The notes beneath the pieces were generated by a model. The model had not been told where the DNA came from and did no database searches. It saw nothing but the letters and a program-made list of their open reading frames with translations. Positions 3,096 through 17,762 of a stretch of DNA of 64,000 nucleotides are shown here, piece by piece. Numbering within the stretch: the first letter of the stretch is position 1; each line of letters opens with the position of its first letter. The stretch covers positions 96,001-160,000 of the forward strand of contig CAWDFP010000007.1 of NCBI GenBank assembly GCA_963801605.1. Reading direction: 5' to 3'. Position numbers and translations under genes: made by a program. Source of the stretch: an uncultured candidate division Zixibacteria bacterium. GTDB lineage: Bacteria; Zixibacteria; MSB-5A5; UBA10806.

Positions 3096-3714
3096 CAAAA
3101 GAAGGCTACCTGTTTCCATTACCATTTTTTATTCTGGGAATTATATTATTCTTTCTTTTTGATAAAACCATGACATCGTTACCTCTTCTTTATGCCGCCG
3201 CTGTGTCGTTCTATCTGGGATTGGTGATTGTGCTGTTTTTTCGCGATCCCGACCGGAAAATTCCGTCCGGTGAAAATCTGGTGATTTCGCCGGCTGATGG
3301 AAAGATAATCAGAATCGACTGCGAGGGAGAAAATCCAGCACTTTCGATATTTCTATCGGTAACCAACGTGCATGTTAATCGAGCGCCGGTAACGGGGTAA
3401 TAAATTCAGTGGAGCATCGCAAAGGGAAATTTCATACGGCTTTCAAGAAGGCCGCGATGCATGAAAATGCCCGCAATGAAATCGAGATCGAGACTAATAG
3501 GGGACTGGTTAAGATGAATCAAGTCGCCGGTTATATCGCTCGACGGACAATCTGCTATAAGAAACCCGGCGACAAAATTGCGGCAGGCGAGCGGATAGGT
3601 CTGATTCGGTTTGGAAGCAGGGTCGATCTTACGCTTCCGGCCGGTTCGAAGATCGATGTTAGTTTGGGTCAGAAAGTGCGGGCAGGCGAGACCGTTCTGG
3701 GGAATCTATCGTGA
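3092..3714 (+). CDS. psd: Phosphatidylserine decarboxylase proenzyme (single-base frameshift at ~3397, probably a sequencing error)
   Basis: FFRDPDR, SPADG and NVHVNRAP in the first fragment; [11 protein letters not shown] autocleavage motif in the second; one extra G in ACGGGGTAA joins the frames. Confidence 0.9.
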
Positions 3715-6498: not shown

Positions 6499-6903
6499 AT
6501 GCAGTTTACCAGAAAAGGTGATTACGCGCTAAAGGCCATGGCATATTTGGCAGTGACCAAAAGCTCTAATCCCCATACAATCGATGAAATTTCCGAACAG
6601 AGTCGGATTCCCCGGCATTTTCTCGCCAAGATTCTCAAGGATTTGACACACGCCAATCTTCTGATTGCAATGAAGGGCGCGCATGGAGGGTACACTCTGG
6701 CCAAAAAACCATCGGAAATAAGCCTGCTTGAAGTTATTGAAGCGTCGGTGGGGCCGTTGGCGCTCAATCTCTGTCTGGAGGGAAGCGGCCGATGCTCGGA
6801 GCTTTCGACATGCGGGCTTTATCCGGTATGGCAACAGGCCTCACGGGCCGTGCGAGATGTTTTTGAAAAGGCAACACTAAGCTCAATTTCCCAGGGACAG
6901 TGA
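6499..6903 (+). CDS. Rrf2/IscR-family transcriptional regulator with three C-terminal Cys
   Basis: MQFTRKGDYAL, GAHGGYTLAK, C-x6-C-x5-C; directly upstream of iscS-iscU. Confidence 0.92.
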   Translation: MQFTRKGDYALKAMAYLAVTKSSNPHTIDEISEQSRIPRHFLAKILKDLTHANLLIAMKGAHGGYTLAKKPSEISLLEVIEASVGPLALNLCLEGSGRCSELSTCGLYPVWQQASRAVRDVFEKATLSSISQGQ

Positions 6904-8120
6904 GTCGTGAGATGAGCGAGCGATTCGTTTATTTCGATAATATCAATACGACTTTCCCCGATCCGGAGGTCGTTGAGGTCCTAACAAAGGTATTGGTATC
7001 CCGGGCGGGCAATCCGTCATCCCATATTCATTCGGCCGGTATTGCGGCCGGGGAAATCCTGGATGAAGCCCGTCAGAAGGTAGCGGCATTGATTAATGCC
7101 GATGCCAATAAAGTCATTTTTACATCGGGTGCAACGGAATCGAATAACTTAGCGATCACGGGATTTATAAAAGCTCATCCCCAATATCAGATTGTAGTTT
7201 CGAATATTGAGCATTTTTCGATACTAAATCAGGCCGCAAGGCTTAAAAGGGAAGGCCACAAGGTAAGCTTTCTCGACGTTAACAGCTACGGACTGATCGA
7301 TTGCGCCAAATTAGAGATAATACTTAGCGAAGGACCATCGTTAGTATCAATAGCGCCGGCTAATCCCGAGATAGGGACTATTCAAGATATTGATAAGATA
7401 GGCGAGATCTGCCTTAAATATAATGCGGTACTGCATTGTGACGGGACTGCGGCGGCATCAACTATGGAAATCGATGTGCGCAAGATGAATATCAGCTTCC
7501 TGACGCTTTCGGGCCACAATATGTACGCCCCGGTTGGAATAGGCGCGCTTTACACAGGAAATAGTATAGCGCCACTTTTCGAAGGCGGCAATCAGGAGAC
7601 GGGTATTCGTCCTGGCACCGAGAATTTTCCGGCAGCAGCGGCAATGGGCGAGGCTTGCACAATGTTATCGAAAAATAGAAATCGGTGGAATCAAGAGCTT
7701 GGGAATATGGGGCAGCGGCTTTGGAATGGATTATCAGAAAAGATACCTTTCATTCATTTTACCGGCCATCCAAAGCAGCGTTTGCCGGGGCATGTTTCAT
7801 TCTGGGTAGAGCATATCGAGGGTGAATCGCTCTTACTATTATTAAATATGAAAGGTGTAATGGCGGCCTCGGGATCAGCCTGCAGTTCGAATCTAAAGGG
7901 ACGCGATGAAGAGGATTTGGCGGCCTCGCATGTCCTAACCGCTATCGGGGTACCAAACGATATTTGCGCCGGTTCGATAACATTTTCGCTGGCCAGATAT
8001 AATACCGAAAATGATGTTGATTATGTGTTAGAGATAATGCCCGGAATCGTTGAAAAGCTTTTGGCCATGTCGCCAAGTTATAGCGATTATCTCAGAAAAA
8101 AGGAGTTATTACATGAATAA
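6900..8120 (+). CDS. iscS: Cysteine desulfurase (IscS/NifS) family protein with atypical PLP site
   Basis: GNPSS, FTSGATESNN, RPGTEN and SGSACSS present; SGHK is replaced by SGHN; start may be ATG 6912. Confidence 0.88.
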   Translation: MSREMSERFVYFDNINTTFPDPEVVEVLTKVLVSRAGNPSSHIHSAGIAAGEILDEARQKVAALINADANKVIFTSGATESNNLAITGFIKAHPQYQIVVSNIEHFSILNQAARLKREGHKVSFLDVNSYGLIDCAKLEIILSEGPSLVSIAPANPEIGTIQDIDKIGEICLKYNAVLHCDGTAAASTMEIDVRKMNISFLTLSGHNMYAPVGIGALYTGNSIAPLFEGGNQETGIRPGTENFPAAAAMGEACTMLSKNRNRWNQELGNMGQRLWNGLSEKIPFIHFTGHPKQRLPGHVSFWVEHIEGESLLLLLNMKGVMAASGSACSSNLKGRDEEDLAASHVLTAIGVPNDICAGSITFSLARYNTENDVDYVLEIMPGIVEKLLAMSPSYSDYLRKKELLHE

Positions 8121-8496
8121 ATCATTTCCATATTCTCCGCTGGTGATGGAACATTTCGCCAATCCCCGCAACATGGGCGAGATTGCCGATCCATCCGCTG
8201 TTGGCGACGTAGGCAATCCTACCTGCGGGGATATGATGCGGCTCTATTTGAAAATCGAAAATGGCGTTATCGTAGATGCCAAATTCAAGACTTTCGGATG
8301 CGGAGCCGCCATCGCTTCATCGTCGATTTTGACCGAGATGCTGATCGGCAAAAAGGTTGAGGATGCGCTCAAGATTTCCAATGAGGCCGTTGCGGAGGCG
8401 TTGGGTGGGCTTCCGCCGGTTAAGATTCACTGTTCAGTAATGGCCGAAGAGGCCGTAAAAGCGGCTTTAGCGGATTTCGAGAAACGCAACAAATAG
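8113..8496 (+). CDS. iscU: Fe-S cluster scaffold IscU/NifU
   Basis: EHFANPRN, GNPTCGD, FGCGAAIASS, LPPVKIHCS; ATG 8113 after AGGAG. Confidence 0.95.
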   Translation: MNKSFPYSPLVMEHFANPRNMGEIADPSAVGDVGNPTCGDMMRLYLKIENGVIVDAKFKTFGCGAAIASSSILTEMLIGKKVEDALKISNEAVAEALGGLPPVKIHCSVMAEEAVKAALADFEKRNK

Positions 8497-8585: not shown

Positions 8586-10657
8586 TTACCTTGCTGGCGG
8601 ACAGGAAGGACAAGGCGTCGGCGACGGCCCGCCTTTGAAGAAAGATACCATATAGGTTACATCCAAACCGTTGAAGGAGCAGGAGGCGTTAACATCGCCG
8701 GATACAAACCAGGTGTTGCCCGGTGTACATTCGCAGGAATAGGGAGGCAGGGGCCCGCCCTTGAAGTAGGAGACGGAATAGGTAACATCAAGGCCGTTGA
8801 AGGTGGTCGAGCCATTGGCGTCGCCGGGGGTGTAGGCGCAAGGAGGGGGGCCAAAGTTTGTGCGCAAAATCATAAGAGAGTTATTATCTGCCACATAAAC
8901 ATAAGAGCCGGAAACAAATAAATCTTCGGCCCAGCCTGGCGTATCAAAGCTTCCCTGCAAGGTGGGGTTTGAGGGGTCGGAGATATTTACTATCTGAAGG
9001 CCGGCATAGTAATCGGCCACATATGCATAAGAGCCGGAAACAAATACCCCCGAGCTACAACTGGCGTAGCATAGCTCGCCTGCAGAGTTGGGTTGGAAGG
9101 ATCAGAAATATTTACTATCTGGAGGCCGGAAGACCAATCGGCCACATAGGCATAAGAGCCTAAAACGAATACTGCATAGGCAATGCCCGGCGTATCATAG
9201 CTCGCCTGCAAGGTGGGATTGGAAGGATCAGAGATATTTACTATCTGAAGGCCGGATTCGCCATCGGCCACATAGGCATAAGAGCTTGAAATAAATACGC
9301 CTAGGGCAGGGCCCGGCATATCATAGCTCGCCTGCAAAGTGGGGTTGGAAGGGTCGGAGATATTTACTATCTGAAGGCCGGAATAGTAATCGGCCACATA
9401 GGCGTAAGCGCCCGAAACGAATACTTCCTGGGCATAGCCTGGCGTATTACAGCTTCCCTGCGGGACAGGAGATGAGGGATCAGAGATATTTACTATTCGA
9501 AGGCCAGTGGAGCCATCGGCCACGTGGGCAAAGGAGCCTGAAACGAATACTCCATGGGCTTGGCCTGGCGTATCGTAACTTCCGCTTAAGGTCGGGCTTG
9601 AGGGATTGGTGATATTTACTATCTGAAGGCCTGAAGTGTAATCGGCCACATAAGCATAAGAGCCTGAAACGAATACTCCCTGGGCATAGGTTGGCGTATC
9701 AAAGCTTCCCTGCAAAGTGGGGTTTGAGGGGTTAGAGATATTTACTATCTGAAGGAAGAACCCATCGGCCACATAGGCATATGAATCTGAAACGATTACT
9801 CCCAAAGCATTGCCTGGCGTATCGAAGCTACCCTGCAAAGTGGGGCTTGAGGGATTTGAGATATTTACAATCTGAAGGATATAACCATCGGTCACATAGG
9901 CATAGGAGCCTGAAACGAATACTCCCCGGGCCTCGACTGGCGTATCATAGCTTCCCTGCAAGGTGGGAGTTGAGGGGTTAGATTTATTGACAATTTGAAG
10001 GCCGGAATAGCCATCGGCCACATAAGCGTAATTGCCGGAGACAAAGACGTCAGAGCCCTGTCTGGCGTATCATAGCTTCCCGCCAGGGTTGGGCTTGACG
10101 GATTGGAGATATTGATAATCTGAAGGCCGGATGTGTCATCGGCCACATAAGCGTAACTGCCGGATACAAAGACGCCATAAGCAAAGTCCGGCGTATCGAA
10201 GCTTCCGGCCAGTGTCGGGCTTGAGGGATTGGAAATATTGACAACCTGAAGGCCGGAAGAGCCAGCGGCCACATAAGCGTAAGAGCCGGAAACGAAAACG
10301 CCTAAAGCATCGATGGCGTAAGCTGCCGACCAGAGTCGGACTTGAGGGATTGGAGATATTTACTATCTGAAGTCCGAAAGAGGCATCAGCCACATAAGCG
10401 TAAGAGCCGGAGACATCAATTGCTTTTCCATAACCTTGAAGAAAATATTGGCTTACAAATACAGGCGCTGCAGGGTCTGAAATATCGAGGATAACAAGTC
10501 CATTTACAAAAGCGCAATAAGCATAATTGCCAACTACTTCGACATCAATGACGCCGGTCCAGAGGGTTGAGCCGACATATTCTACGTTTTGGGCGTGAAT
10601 ACCGGCCGCGCCGAGCAGCATCAAGAATACCGAAAAAATCAGAACAAAACGATTCAT
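8586..10657 (-). CDS. Secreted LVIVD-repeat protein with C-terminal dockerin-like domain (three apparent frameshifts at ~10321, ~10053, ~9048)
   Basis: Signal peptide MNRFVLIFSVFLMLLGAAGIHA; ~12 repeats of YAYVADxxSGLQIVNISxPSxPTLxGSYDT; C-terminal GDxNGSxxFNGLDVTY twice. Confidence 0.85.
8890..10420. repeat. Intragenic tandem repeats of ~123-126 bp (LVIVD units)
   Basis: GATATTTACTATCTGAAGG-like core recurs with 126-bp spacing (~8982, 9108, 9233, 9359, 9485, 9611, 9737...). Confidence 0.9.
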
Positions 10658-10794
10658 CTTTTCCTCCAAAGGAAAAAGCCAGGGCCAAATGGAACTCTTT
10701 AGTTTTTCTGCCAGTATCCCAAAAGAAGATAATAATAATACAGGCCCAATATAATAGAATTGGGCCTGAAAACAATCCAAAATTTAGGAACTGC

Positions 10795-12111
10795 CTATGG
10801 CGCCGGCGGACAGTCCGGGCAGGGTCCCGGTGTTGGCCCTCCCTTGAAATAAGCGACGCCGTAGGTAATATCAAGCCCGTTAAAGCTACAACTTCCATTT
10901 ATATCACCAGCCACAAACCAGGAATGACCCGTGGTGCATTCGCAGGAATATGATGGCGGTGGTCCGCCCTTGAAGTAACCCACTCCGTAGGTAACATCCA
11001 ACCCATTGAAGGTGTTACTGCCATTAATATCGCCAGTCACGTAAATACACCCGCTCGGCGGCTCATGCACCAAAAAATGGAATATAGATGCGCTGGATCT
11101 TTCAGGCGCATGGCCATTGAAAGCTACAACCTTCCAGTAATAGGTGGAATCATTAGGAACACAGAGCGGGGGAGACCAGGTGGTGTCGGAGAGCGTGTCT
11201 GAAATAAGGAAAGGATTGCTAAATGAAGGCGTAAAGTTAAGATATGCCAGGTAACGCACTGCATAGCCTGAATCGGTATCAATGGTGCTGTGCCAAGCAA
11301 CAGTAGTTGTGCATGTGGGAATCGTATCCCCATTGACGGGGGAAATCAGGGTGAAAGGTTCGAGATAGTATGTCATCGTCATGACATTTCGCTTAGCGCC
11401 CTGTAAAATCCTGTGGCCTGAATCCGATTGAACGAAAACAACCACATCGCAATTAGCCTGAACCAAAGGACTGGGACAGGAGAAGGCTTGTGATAAATTA
11501 ACAGTATCGCCGTTGGCAATTGTAAGGGCGATACCGCCGGAGTTAGGCGTTAAATCCCTGAATGTCTGATTGTGTATTGTCGTGCCGTTTGGCGACGAGC
11601 GATTTATGTTTGATTCTGTTATCGCAATGCGAACCTTTAAGTTGGTATTCGTAATTGGAGCAGTTGCGATAATCGTAATATTTGCATGGCCGGCGCGAGT
11701 TGTAGAATTGTAATCGCCGGCAATTTCAATATCAAGCGGCGAGCTAACTGCCAACTCTGTATTGATTCTCGATCCCCAGGTGCCGTGGGTGGCCCCAGCA
11801 TCAATATTTCCGTCAATGAACAAGCTTGGCGCATAATCATTGCCATAGTAGCTGTCTCTGGCAGTTATCTCGGAAATATTATATTGATAGTAAGGATCGC
11901 TTGAGTCCGGATAATATCGGTGGTAACGAATAAGAATTAGGCGATCAGGATGAAGAGTAGCTTGCTGATCTAGGACCAGATCAGCGGCGGGGCAAGATGG
12001 TCAGCACCAGTTGGTTAACATCTCCCCAACGACGATTCTTTCGGTGGCCAAAGCATGCCCGACAAGCAGGCAAAATCCCAAAGCAACAAACAATACCGCA
12101 GTCATCCTCAT
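10795..12111 (-). CDS. Secreted Omp28/thioredoxin-like protein with Ig/FN3-like and dockerin-like domains; predicted selenoprotein (UGA at codon 37), 438 aa
   Basis: ATG 12111 after GAGGT; signal peptide; EMLTNWC-TGA-PSCP...IRYH...DPY...YYG...APSLFIDG continues in frame into ORF 10795..11823; hairpin after UGA. Confidence 0.85.
11964..11985 (-). promoter_or_regulatory. Putative bacterial SECIS element
   Basis: mRNA GCUGAUCUG-GUCC-UAGAUCAGC: 9-bp stem with a G-first tetraloop following 24 nt after the in-frame UGA (12001-12003). Confidence 0.75.
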
Positions 12112-12399
12112 ACACTTACCTCTCTGTCTGTGTGAATCGGTCTATGGATCAATAAAAATAATTTAGACAAAAATTGAAATAAATTCGGGGCAAAAATCGA
12201 AGTGTTGTTAATCACGCAGCGGTCTCTTTATCATGCCAACGATTCAAGTATTTTTACAGAAGAAGCCAGGCAACCGCCTGAAGTCTTTTATATAGATACC
12301 ATATAAGATTATTTTGTCAAGTATTTTACAAGGCAAAAAATCAAAATTGTAAAGGGAGGAAATATGGAATCTACAGATGAAGGCGATTCGAATTTGAGA

Positions 12400-13407
12400 T
12401 CACCATCGCTGTTTTAGGAGATTAGACAACTGCGGTCCGGTCATATTTGATTCCAATACAACCGTTTTGCCCTGCTTGGAGATATTTAAGCTTTCGAGCA
12501 GCGCCCTATTCGGATCGTTAGGGGGCAGGAATGAGGCCAGCCCGCCACCAATCTGGAAAATGCTGGAAACAATCAGGGCGTTGCTTTCACTATCCATTCC
12601 CAGATAGCCATTTACGAGAAACCCGTTGCCACTTGGGGAGATCGACAGGCCAACCTCATCGAGATAATCAACGTAACCAAGAGCGGCGCGGGCAGTAGAT
12701 GATCGTATTTGGACGGTATCGGCCTTGACGAGATTCCGCATTTCGGGAGTTACCAGGATAAACATGTTGGCAAGTTTGGAGTCATTTGTCGAAAAATCCT
12801 GACTCAGACGCTGAAATGTATCGTATGTCGAGATGCCGGGCGCTTTACCGCCGGCAACATCGAGTATGCTTTTAATAATCTCCTCAGAGCCTCCGACCGC
12901 TAATCCTCCTCCCGGAAGCTGGCTGATACATTCGCCGTCTTTCGGGTTAAGCAGGTAGGCAGCGCCGGTCGACCACCATAGAAGCTTTTTATTGGAATAG
13001 TTTATCTCTTTCCAACCTTTGGATTTAATGGTTTGAAGATTGATTTTGTTATCGAGATTGCCGGTGATGATAAAAGCGCCATTTGAGGGAAGCTTTCGTG
13101 GTATGGCCGTTGTTTTTGATCCCTTAATCCAGCTTTTATCAAAAGGCATAAACATTACCAGGCGATCAATATTGGCAAGATCCAGATTCATCAATCCCAA
13201 ATAGTAGCTTAACGTGTTATTTCCCAGCATGGCCGTTTTGAGATCGGGATATTGCGCCACTTGTCCGGGTCTCATCCACAACACAACTTGCGCGTTGCCC
13301 GGAATAGGGGCGACTATCGTTTGTTGAGCCAAGGCTATACCGCCTGCGAGCGATATTACCGCCCAGGTCGTAAGTATAGAGATTAATCTTATTTGGTTGT
13401 TTTTCAT
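12400..13407 (-). CDS. Hypothetical exported protein
   Basis: 335-aa ORF with signal-peptide-like N-terminus (…GGIALA|QQ); no recognised domain. Confidence 0.8.
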   Translation of the reverse strand: MKNNQIRLISILTTWAVISLAGGIALAQQTIVAPIPGNAQVVLWMRPGQVAQYPDLKTAMLGNNTLSYYLGLMNLDLANIDRLVMFMPFDKSWIKGSKTTAIPRKLPSNGAFIITGNLDNKINLQTIKSKGWKEINYSNKKLLWWSTGAAYLLNPKDGECISQLPGGGLAVGGSEEIIKSILDVAGGKAPGISTYDTFQRLSQDFSTNDSKLANMFILVTPEMRNLVKADTVQIRSSTARAALGYVDYLDEVGLSISPSGNGFLVNGYLGMDSESNALIVSSIFQIGGGLASFLPPNDPNRALLESLNISKQGKTVVLESNMTGPQLSNLLKQRW

Positions 13408-13608
13408 TTTATTCACTTTCTATTTATTCATAATTTGCTCGAACTACTTAATGTTTGCGAAAAATGGCGGGATGTCAATAACGATTTTTTAATTAAATCA
13501 ATTTAATGATAAATCATAATTGGAGTTTGCTAATTAAAATGCGAAGGGGGGCTTATATTTATATTAATTCGGTTATTAAGCGATACCTGCATGGTAATAA
13601 CATTTTGC

Positions 13609-13637: not shown

Positions 13638-13774
13638 TAACGTGGTAATGATTATCTTCGATGCCTGTCGAGGTTGTGTTGATCAGAATTGGAAATTGCA
13701 GTAACGGAGTCTTTAATTTCGCAAGGTTTTCGCATTTTCATATAGTGGTACCTTAGTGGAGATTGGAGGTAGAT

Positions 13775-16700
13775 TTGAAAAGCTCTACACTTGTGTTTGT
13801 CATCCTGCTGGCCCTAACAGGGTTGGCGTACCCCGCTCAAACGGTTAACATAGGCCTAACGCCATCGGGGGCGGAGCTTCTCTTTCAGGATCAATCCGGA
13901 ATTGACCTGCGAGTAGATGTGGGGGAATTGAATTTCGACGAAATCAATACCTCTGAAGGGCAATTTATCTTGATCACGTCCGACGGATTGGGAAGCTCTC
14001 AGAATATAGGTGAGCCTAACCTGCCGATATTGAATCGTCTGATTTCAATCCCGTATGGATGCGAACTTCAGTGCGAAGTTACCAGTTCGGAATACCAGGA
14101 TATTTCGCTTTCAGATTTGAATTTGACCAATCCTATTATGCCCGTACAGCCGCCGCTCTCAAAAGGAGTTGATCCGGCGACGGTTCCTTTTGAATACAAT
14201 CGAAGCGTATACCAGCAGAGCGGCTATTATTCTCAGCAACTGGCGTCAGCTCAGATTCTTGGCGTGATGCGCGCGATGCGAATGGGATTGGTTTCAATAG
14301 CTCCGATACAATATAATCCGCTTGAAAATACTCTTCGAGTTTATAAAACGGTAACCGTCCATATAAGCTATCTTCATCCGGATTGGACAACCACCCGTCA
14401 AACCTGGGAGCGCCTTGATTCGCCAGTCTACTCAACAGTATATGGGCAGGTATTCAACTATGTTGGTCAAGAATCAATGCTGCTCGAAGACCATACCAGA
14501 TACCCGATAAAATATGTAATCGTTTCGCCGAGAATGTTCGAAACTCAGCTACAACCATTCATTCAATGGAAAATTAAAAAGGGTTTTAAGGTCGTAGTCG
14601 GTTATACGGATGTCATTGGGACGACCAATACAGCCATAAAAACATGGATTCATAATTTGTACGATGCCGGCACTCCGGACGACCCGGCGCCATCGTTTGT
14701 GCTGCTTGTCGGTGATGCTCAGCAGATTCCGCCGTTTTCATTCAGTACTCACATCTCCGATCTCAGCTTTTGCGAATTTACCAATGATACTTATCCCGAG
14801 ATATATTATGGGCGTTTCTCAGCGCAGACGGTCGCGCAACTGACTCCTCAAATAGACAAGACTCTGGAATATGAAAAATATCTGATGCCCGATCCCAGCT
14901 ATCTGGGCAGGGTTACTATGATCTCCGGCGTCGATGCTAATTACGCTCAGCATCAAGGCAATGGGCAGATCAACTATGGAACCCGCTATTATTTCAATTC
15001 AGCTCATGGAATCACGTCCAATACCTGGCTTTATCCGGCCTCAAACGGTAATGTGGAAGCCGCCATTATCGCGACGATAAATAGCGGCGTAAGCTTCATC
15101 AACTACACCGCTCACGGCTCTCATGATGGTTGGGCCGATCCATCGCTATCAACATCCAACGTCAACGCGCTTACTAATGCGCATAAATATACATTAGCGG
15201 TGGGAAATTGTTGTTTGACGAATACCTTTGGAACCGATTACTCCGACCCGTGCATGGGCGAAGCCTGGCTACAGGGAGCTAACAAAGGAGCTATCGGCTA
15301 TATCGGGGCATCCAACAACAGCTACTGGGATGAGGATTATTATTGGGGAGTTGGATGGCATACCGTAATTGACAACGGTCCCGACTATGATCCGACTCGT
15401 CTGGGCGCTTATGATGGCGTTTTCCATACTCATGGCGAACCTGTCAGCCGTCATTATGTGACCAACGATGCCATGCTTTATTGCGGCAATTTGGCGGTTA
15501 CCCAATCGGGTTCAAGTATGATTGCCTACTACTGGCAAATTTATCATCTGATGGGCGACCCCTCGGTAATGACTTATCTCGGCCTCCCAACGACTAATAA
15601 TGTAGTGCATACGGGGTCGATGCTCTTTAGCGGCACGACATATACAGTTCAAGCCGATCCCGGCTCATACGTGGGTATCTCTCTCGATGGTGTCCTGCAT
15701 GGGGCGTCATATATTGATTCATCAGGATCGGCTAACATTACGCTTGATCCATTCAGCGGCCCGGGTACAGCGGATATCGTGGTAACCGCTCAAAACCGGA
15801 TTCCCTATACCGGAACGATTCAACTAATTGCGCCATCCGGCCCGTTTGTAGTATTCGACAGCAGCAGCGTAAACGATGCCACCGGCAACAATAATGGGAT
15901 CATCGATGCCAGCGAGCATATAATTTTGGGTGTACGTCTGAAAAATGTGGGACCTGATACGGCCCACGCTGTTTCGGCGACCCTGGCCTGTACAGATACT
16001 TTTGTAACCGTAACTGACAATACCGAATCGTATGGTGACATTATTGGCAATAACGGAACCGTAAACAGGCCGAGCGCTTTTGCTTTCAATGTTTCAGGAA
16101 GAACTCCGGAAAATCACAATATTTCATTCCAGATCACAATGACGGATGATGCCGCTCATAACTGGAACGGCACAATTTCCCTGCCCGTTCATTCGCCGGC
16201 GCTAAGTTATGCGTCGATCCAGATAAATGACGGTTCCGGCAATAATAACGGGGCGCTCGATCCCGGCGAAACCGCTCAGCTGGTGGTAACGCTTCAAAAT
16301 AACGGTTCCGGCCAGGCTTTTGCAATTACGGGTATCCTTTCCGAAAACGATACATATATCAGTTTAGGCGATGCCAACGGTACTTTCGGAAATATACTTG
16401 CCGGAGGAAACGGTAATAATTCCGGCGATCTATTCTCCATAACTGCCAGTTCATCTTGCCCGCTGGGTCATACCTTTAATTTAATTCTGGCATTAACCGG
16501 AGCCGACGGATATGTAACATCCGTGCAGATTCCCATGGTAGTAGGGATTAGAGTGCCGATTTATACGGATGATTTTTCGACCAATCGAGGCTGGACCGGT
16601 CTTGGCGGTCTTGGGCAATGGACTATTGGAGCCTGCACGGGCGGCGCCGGCAACGATACTCATGGCGGTCCCGATCCCTCTGTCGATCACAGCCCGACAA

Positions 16701-17762
16701 GCGACAATAAAGTACTGGGAACAGATCTGACCAGCGGAACCGGAGGGGATTACGATTCCAATTTGACGCAAACCTATTGGGTAACATCCCCAACAATAGA
16801 CTGCTCCAATTACAGCGGTGTTCAATTGCAATTCTACCGTTGGCTGGGGGTGGAACGCGTATTATATGATACCGCATATCTTCAGGCTTACAACGGCAGC
16901 GCCTGGGTAACTCTATTCCGCAATGATTCCACGCTGGATGAATCTGCCTGGATTTTGCGAACGCATAATATTTCATCGTATGCCGATCATAATGCAAATT
17001 TCAAGATCAGATTTGGAATCGGCGGCTCAGATCACGCCTGGCAGTTCTGCGGTTGGAATATCGATGATATTTTAATCAACGGATATCAGGAAGTTGCTCC
17101 GGGGAATCCTGATCTTTCACTTTCGATAAATAGTCTGGCAGATACCCTGGTTCAGGGCGATTCGGCCTCACACTCGTTCAAAATATACAATGGGGGAACG
17201 TCCGATCTGCGGATAACATTTAACTGCACGGCCGCATGGGTTAGATATTCGGGTAATCAAATTACGGTACCGGCTAATGACAGCGCCAATTATTCGTTGA
17301 CGCTTCGTTCCGCCAGCCTTTCGCCCGGGCCGTTTGCGACTATCGTTAACCTATGTCTCCAACGATACCGGTAATGCCTCGGGGTCAATCCCGATCAGTT
17401 TGTTGGTCAGGCCGGTTGCTCCGCCTCAGTGTGAATATATCCTGGGTGACGTTAATGGAAATAACGTCTTTAATGGTTTGGATGTAACTTACGGCGTTGG
17501 TTACTTCAAAGGTGGAATCCCTCCGCCATATAGCTGCGAATGTCCGGCGGGAAGCGGTAATTACTGGTTTGTCGCTGGCGATATTAACGGCAGCTGCTCA
17601 TTTAATGGCCTGGATGTAACTTTTATGGTAGCTTATTTCAAGGGCGGCGGCGTTTTAACCACCTGTCCTGATTGTCCATCGTCAGGAATATTGAAAGCTC
17701 CGCAACAACCTATCTTAGTACCTACCGCAAACCAAACCAATGGGAGTGGATCGTCGGAATAG
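13775..17762 (+). CDS. Gingipain-like C25 cysteine peptidase (propeptide, catalytic, Ig-like domains) with C-terminal dockerin-like domain; frameshift at ~17341
   Basis: TTG start after GGAGGT; signal peptide; GEPNLP propeptide; FVLLVGD, YYGRFSA, NYTAHGS (His), GNCC (Cys), YHLMGDPS; the 17334..17762 fragment carries the dockerin-like repeat. Confidence 0.9.

Follow-up and report, generated by a model that had tools for sequence, protein, structure and literature searches.

Does the one TGA codon that interrupts an otherwise open reading frame in a Zixibacteria genome end the gene, or does it encode selenocysteine (Sec), and what would the full-length product be? The frame lies in a 64,000 nt stretch of contig CAWDFP010000007.1 (assembly GCA_963801605.1; hereafter, the window) from an uncultured candidate division Zixibacteria bacterium. 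We conclude that the TGA is very likely read as Sec, and that the product is predicted to be a thiol-disulfide oxidoreductase of the HBP35/Omp28 type that is exported and that a dockerin-like tail likely keeps outside the cytoplasm; we put the probability of this reading at roughly 0.8.

Results

A long reading frame with a single TGA

The frame runs on the reverse strand from an ATG at 12111 to a TAG at 10795, and its 438 codons are interrupted once, by the TGA at 12001-12003, which is codon 37 in the context T-N-W-C-U-P-S-C-P (Table 1). An initial annotation of this DNA had described a frame open up to this ATG save for one TGA, with an automated start call further downstream. Both descriptions are accurate: the table-11 ORF list puts the gene start at 11823, and public databases carry a 342-aa shortened form of the protein (P0003). 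Gene callers thus shorten the gene, as had been predicted, and 30 of the 144 best database representatives likewise begin 3' of the active-site motif, having been cut by gene callers. Homologues align with the gene product across residues 2-244, and 95 of 111 have a Met start 33-46 codons ahead of the active site. The secretion signal proposed earlier is consistent with inspection of the N-terminus by eye and with hydropathy.

Table 1. Features of the gene (positions within the window)
Feature	Position	Strand	Basis
Whole gene, 438 aa with Sec37	10795..12111	-	open frame and homologues
Ribosome-binding-like site AGAGGT (GAGG core)	12118..12123	-	sequence, just 5' of the ATG
Predicted signal peptide, residues 1-22, ending A-L-A, no lipobox	12046..12111	-	sequence and hydropathy
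Cys36, extra Cys directly before Sec	12004..12006	-	1 of 111 homologues
TGA, predicted Sec37, nucleophilic position of U-x-x-C	12001..12003	-	aligns with Cys in 36 homologues and with HBP35 Cys48
Cys40, resolving cysteine	11992..11994	-	invariant in alignment A2, whose rows were selected for carrying the motif
SECIS-type hairpin, 9 bp, loop GUCC at 11973-11976	11964..11985	-	folding, homologue comparison
Thioredoxin and Ig-like module (HBP35/Omp28 type), residues 23-249	11365..12045	-	Pfam Omp28, fold match
Fibronectin-III-like (FN3) spacer, residues ~248-353	11053..11370	-	fold match
Dockerin-like tail, two G-D-x-N-G-x7-D repeats, six Cys	10801..11052	-	fold match
Terminator-like hairpin after the stop	10741..10768	-	consensus match only

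The gene lies on its own, and the gene preceding it belongs to no known family. At 12400-13416 (-) the window encodes an exported-looking protein with no Pfam match, and a similar gene precedes the orthologue in both same-genus genomes (L035 and L036). A repeat protein that we take to be LVIVD-like is encoded at 8586-10780 (-); it has the same dockerin-like tail and is broken into four frames. The large secreted protein encoded at 13763-17762 (+), which presumably resembles a gingipain-type C25 peptidase, is split near its end and has a dockerin-like tail. We assume that the genes at 6499-8496 (+) encode an Rrf2 regulator, a cysteine desulfurase and a NifU-like protein.

Selenocysteine machinery and use of TGA

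Genes for tRNA-Sec(TCA), selD, selA and selB cluster within 6.5 kb on contig C6, and selD has its own in-frame TGA. The initial annotation had suggested looking for such machinery. The genome has tRNA-Sec, selA and selD, together with a selB gene that is split by a frame change in the assembly. Given that selB is whole in all five relatives and that further genes of this assembly are frame-split, the split is likely an assembly error. SelA was found in 60 of 61 related genomes. The earlier statement that TGA is an ordinary stop elsewhere also stands: TGA terminates 365 of the 1235 long open frames of the genome, from which we infer that the genetic code is standard.

These observations bear on the possibility that translation really stops at codon 37, that the TGA there is a sequencing error, or that a changed code reads it as Trp or Cys, in which case the gene would be broken or would start downstream. 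We consider this very improbable. It is true that several genes in the assembly are frame-split, selB among them, and that neither of the two public sequencing runs compared, out of four, covers codon 37; against this, TGA stops are normal, and tRNA-Sec(TCA) is accompanied by normal tRNA-Trp and tRNA-Cys.

Two further Sec candidates with hairpins lie on contig C6: a thioredoxin-TPR protein with W-U-S-A-C at 1327865 (L145), and a DUF1573/OS_HP2-like protein with U-G-C at 3220 (L146). Both products have signal-like N-termini, and all four non-SelD Sec candidates that we found look exported. A coding-score scan for more Sec genes yielded 435 noisy candidates, which were discarded, and its background rates alone were used.

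Alternation of Sec and Cys among homologues

A search of 61 genomes detected the domain in 33, and a search of 251 with a stricter threshold detected it in 37. Our census at the DNA level covers nearly all matches from the 61-genome search, with four short or weak ones omitted. The motif is present in 112 of its 122 domain rows (76 with TGA, 23 with TGC and 13 with TGT); the other 10 are fragmentary or motif-less. With one TGA row left out, the active-site column of the 111 analysed homologues has TGA in 75 and TGC or TGT in 36. The Cys/TGA alternation at codon 37 that had been suggested as a check is therefore evident. As expected for a selenoprotein gene, the in-frame TGA lies opposite a Cys of homologues, with homology on both flanks. 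The recurrence of the same TGA across many genomes, with Cys in its place in 36 homologues, further argues against a stop codon or an error. The predicted placement of Sec at the nucleophilic position is supported by those same Cys forms and by the alignment with Cys48 of HBP35.

Those close relatives that carry names are Zixibacteria; the locus search reached 11 close relatives. On a quick tree of 106 rows, from which the active site and the hairpin-coded residues were masked, there are 19 Sec/Cys changes versus 30 expected if the states were shuffled, and at least 11 switches are forced by strong branches.

The extra Cys directly before Sec, to which the initial annotation gave weight, does not share this pattern. 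Among the 111 homologues, only the window gene has Cys at position 36; most carry Ser or Gly there, the closest relatives have Gly or Ala, and none of the 114 full-length database representatives checked has a Cys. Judged from these sequences, Cys36 is no family trait but either a substitution confined to this gene or a base error, and it is probably an incidental bystander. A C-x-x-x-C register with Cys36 as the nucleophile was considered and rejected; the closest homologues read T-N-W-[G/A]-[U/C]-x-x-C.

Some family members lack a standard C-x-x-C (L086, L088, L109, L111, L112, L117, L118, L120, P0191 and P0214). Some of them have a lone Cys followed by His; these motif-deviant members are possibly non-catalytic or peroxidase-like variants.

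A SECIS-type hairpin that accompanies the TGA

The initial annotation had also pointed to a SECIS-like 9-bp hairpin 24 nt 3' of the UGA, and we find it within published limits. In the hairpin at 11964-11985, the loop GUCC begins 24 nt past the TGA; the bSECIS model describes a loop of 3-9 nt, with a G in loop positions 1-2, located 16-37 nt from the UGA and folding at -7.5 kcal or below (PMC13188914). The hairpin folds at -14 kcal/mol, with -11.5 kcal for the bare stem; its z-score is -3.09 when 41 nt are folded but only -1.36 when 74 nt are folded. Of 3000 random genomic TGA triplets, 15 have an equally stable hairpin, and 70 pass the -7.5 kcal limit.

Across the homologues, the presence of the hairpin follows the codon. 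The bSECIS limits at -7.5 kcal are passed by 49 of the 75 TGA forms versus 1 of the 36 Cys forms; at -5 kcal, the corresponding numbers are 67 of 75 and 3 of 36, with 8 of the 75 TGA forms still having no hairpin. Of 11 independent pairs, an average of 9.3 have the hairpin on the TGA side, and none shows the opposite association (median p 0.004). Among 21 hand-chosen rows, 4 of the 9 base pairs have changes on both sides, in a test that is inflated by relatedness. The loop is located 24, 34 or 20 nt past the TGA depending on the clade, with two changes on the tree (loci L011 and L034-L127). That the hairpin is tied to the TGA is again at odds with a stop codon or an error, and we propose that SelB and Sec-tRNA almost certainly would bind the hairpin 24 nt downstream and insert Sec37.

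The Cys form L059 retains the stem and has lost the loop G relative to its TGA sister L058, such that this switch from Sec to Cys looks recent.

Domain architecture of the predicted product

The predicted structure has a mean pLDDT of 93.8. The protein scores 58 bits against Pfam Omp28 (PF11551), above the cut-off of 34.9, and in the model residues 23-249 match Porphyromonas gingivalis HBP35 (5y1a; Z 25.9, rmsd 2.4 over 220 residues) and DUF1223/Atu2684 (2axo; Z 19.6). Sec37 superposes on HBP35 Cys48, and Pro95, which is conserved in the thioredoxin module, is likely the cis-Pro. Searching solved structures with this one sequence gave weak thioredoxin matches alone; the profile and the model were needed. 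HBP35 reduces insulin via Cys48/Cys51 and reaches the cell surface (PMC2907840). By analogy with HBP35, the Sec37 selenolate would quite probably attack a disulfide or peroxide of a substrate, with Cys40 resolving the intermediate to a selenenylsulfide.

HBP35 also invites another interpretation, in which the protein is a scavenger and no catalyst, binding heme or a soft metal (Cu, Hg) through its C-U-x-x-C site or its Ig-like part. Hemin is bound by HBP35 independently of its cysteines (PMC2907840), such that this activity would not explain Sec. C-U dipeptides do occur in metal-handling selenoproteins (PMC13188914), whereas the C-U here is private to the window gene, and the cis-Pro position is conserved. 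We therefore regard a scavenger as decidedly unlikely, and favour a thiol-disulfide oxidoreductase.

The spacer that follows matches FN3 modules in the model (Z ~10) and has no Pfam match. The dockerin-like nature of the tail, as initially annotated, is supported by its modelled fold (Z 9.8 and rmsd 1.9 over 70 residues to a cellulosomal dockerin), with the duplicated Ca-loop and helix in two repeats, though its Pfam Dockerin_1 score of 14.3 bits is below the cut-off of 22.9. Fifteen tails encoded in the genome match Dockerin_1, sister tails pass the Pfam cut-off, and three cohesin-like domains score above their cut-off. The tail is less distinctive than had been thought: a search of the genome with the single protein gave 54 matches, nearly all to the tail, which is a generic tag on ~50 proteins. 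Nor is the view that a dockerin-tagged Omp28 selenoprotein is unusual supported, since the curated profile NF045500 itself ends in this way, with positions 268-373 matching TSP3 and dockerin-like tails. Among the 111 homologues, 83 tails are T9SS-like, 19 are dockerin-like, 3 proteins have FN3 only and 6 are unclassified; the one FN3-only homologue that was scanned ends in IPTL-CTERM. SprA and 105 T9SS-tail matches are present in the genome. We suggest that the signal peptide very probably would export the protein, and that the FN3 spacer and dockerin may, on balance, either tether it to a scaffold that bears cohesins or direct it to the surface.

A redoxin-barrel operon elsewhere in the genome

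A paralogue at C6:193555-196837 (L144) also has a TGA, together with a T9SS-like tail. The gene order at this locus is TlpA-like redoxin, DUF6029 barrel (frame-split in the assembly) and Omp28-like Sec gene; the window gene lies outside this operon. By coordinates, the barrel is immediately followed by a family gene in 29 of 33 genomes; in the remaining four, the two are within ~3 kb (2 genomes), cut by contig ends (1) or apart (1). All 16 hand-chosen operon loci have a redoxin, a barrel and one to four family genes. Across 251 genomes, 48 have DUF6029 and 40 have Pfam Omp28, with 39 having both and 202 neither, a co-occurrence that tracks families in genomes that are not independent. Nine of the 48 DUF6029 genomes have no Pfam Omp28 match; two of the five barrel-only loci that were fetched also encode divergent dockerin proteins with U-x-x-C. 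The neighbours of the redoxin-barrel pair in other families are a Fer4_5 membrane protein, a PEGA-redoxin and dockerin-tailed U-x-x-C proteins (L171, L172, L176 and L178-L181); the PEGA-redoxin at L180 carries U-G-P-C. We presume that PG2174 of P. gingivalis is a DUF6029 barrel. That species encodes Omp28 as PG2173 and, two locus numbers away, a thioredoxin-domain protein, PG2175 (PMC13744359).

The barrel has a C-x4-C that is invariant in 58 of 58 DUF6029 rows. Its model (pTM 0.83) has 24 strands and no plug domain, and by topology places the Cys pair on the hairpin before the last strand, in an outer loop; the fold matches are ushers and AlgE. Outer-loop Cys pairs of barrels are often structural. 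The genome also encodes two DsbD membrane domains. Taken as a hypothesis, the operon context suggests a thiol relay across the outer membrane, running from DsbD through periplasmic TlpA and the DUF6029 C-x4-C to surface Sec/Cys Omp28 thioredoxins with T9SS tails or dockerins, the window protein being a surface terminal. We advance this only tentatively, and the relay reading is weaker for the stand-alone window gene than for the operon copy. It is correspondingly conjectural that DsbD, periplasmic TlpA and the barrel encoded with the paralogue, through its Cys pair, re-reduce the window protein.

The same selenoprotein could alternatively be a periplasmic disulfide oxidase or isomerase that folds Cys-rich secreted proteins, with a structural Cys pair in the barrel and an operon that serves folding or secretion and does not conduct electrons. 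This overlaps with our preferred reading in Sec insertion, export and the Sec37/Cys40 chemistry. The Cys-rich tail on ~50 proteins of the genome would supply substrates of this kind, and the barrel resembles secretion pores. The upstream partner, by contrast, is TlpA/ResA-like, which is usually a reducing type, T9SS-like sorting tails are found on 83 of the 111 family members, and Sec favours reductive or peroxidatic chemistry. Reports that hbp35 complemented an E. coli dsbA mutant (PMC2907840), and the proposed role of DUF6029 in polysaccharide export (PMC9603273), fit an oxidase or isomerase, which on all of this evidence we judge rather unlikely.

Discussion

The window gene taken alone is not surprising. 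Its family represents a large added branch of exported selenoproteins that is cut by gene callers and missed by the curated model. With at least 11 Sec/Cys switches, matching gain and loss of the hairpin, and three hairpin registers, the family is a natural test set for the turnover of Sec codons and SECIS elements within coding sequence. If the redoxin-barrel relay is true, it would show how Gram-negative cells keep surface thiols or selenols reduced, and DUF6029 would gain a function.

We found no relevant literature on Omp28 with selenocysteine, and none on Zixibacteria with dockerin or type IX secretion; the parts examined of one preprint (10.1101/2022.07.06.499078) make no mention of Omp28, and selenoprotein-prediction papers from 2024-2025 could already list this branch. 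A thiol relay through an outer-membrane barrel is likewise not described in the literature searched.

Known reducing routes lead from DsbD to TlpA, ResA or CcmG; porin-cytochrome conduits, of which MtrAB is one, are a further comparison. This genome likewise has DsbD and a TlpA-like redoxin, and, as in MtrAB-type conduits, the genes for periplasmic and surface redox partners flank that for a wide barrel without a plug; unlike in these systems, the window gene is not in the operon. With type I dockerins (PF00404), the tail shares two EF-hand-like repeats and the fold, and cohesins are encoded in the genome. It differs in scoring below the cut-off, in its extra cysteines and in not being cellulosomal, and binding to cohesin is putative. 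The protein passes the Pfam cut-off for Omp28 lipoprotein (PF11551), with a fold Z of 9.6; unlike the Omp28 lipoprotein of NF033782, it has no lipobox, scores 41.5 bits against a cut-off of 150, and contains Sec. In the model it shares with HBP35 the thioredoxin and Ig-like module, the active-site register and a C-terminal sorting tail, although HBP35 has Cys and a T9SS tail where the window protein has Sec, FN3 and dockerin, and the two are only 13-16% identical.

The 'Omp28-related selenoprotein' of NF045500 is the 'Hypothetical protein GOS_C' of Table 1 in PMC13188914, and GOS_C, a U-x-x-C family of the thioredoxin fold, comprises 74 Sec and 312 Cys sequences (PMC2398784). The NF045500 profile matches 55 of 56 family rows (best E 3.8e-25). 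The window protein scores 53.1 bits against the curated cut-off of 200, which was reached in none of the 61 related genomes. Shared features are the Omp28-type thioredoxin domain with the E-x-F-T-x-x-x-U register (compared by eye), a signal-like N-terminal segment, Sec/Cys alternation and a dockerin-like tail. Unlike NF045500/GOS_C, the window protein has an FN3 spacer where that family has TSP3, and a Cys-rich dockerin variant that the NF045500 profile does not match, and its family is multi-copy in Zixibacteria. This kind of selenoprotein has therefore already been predicted, and the window gene, as its sequence indicates, is a member of a branch that the curated NF045500 model misses.
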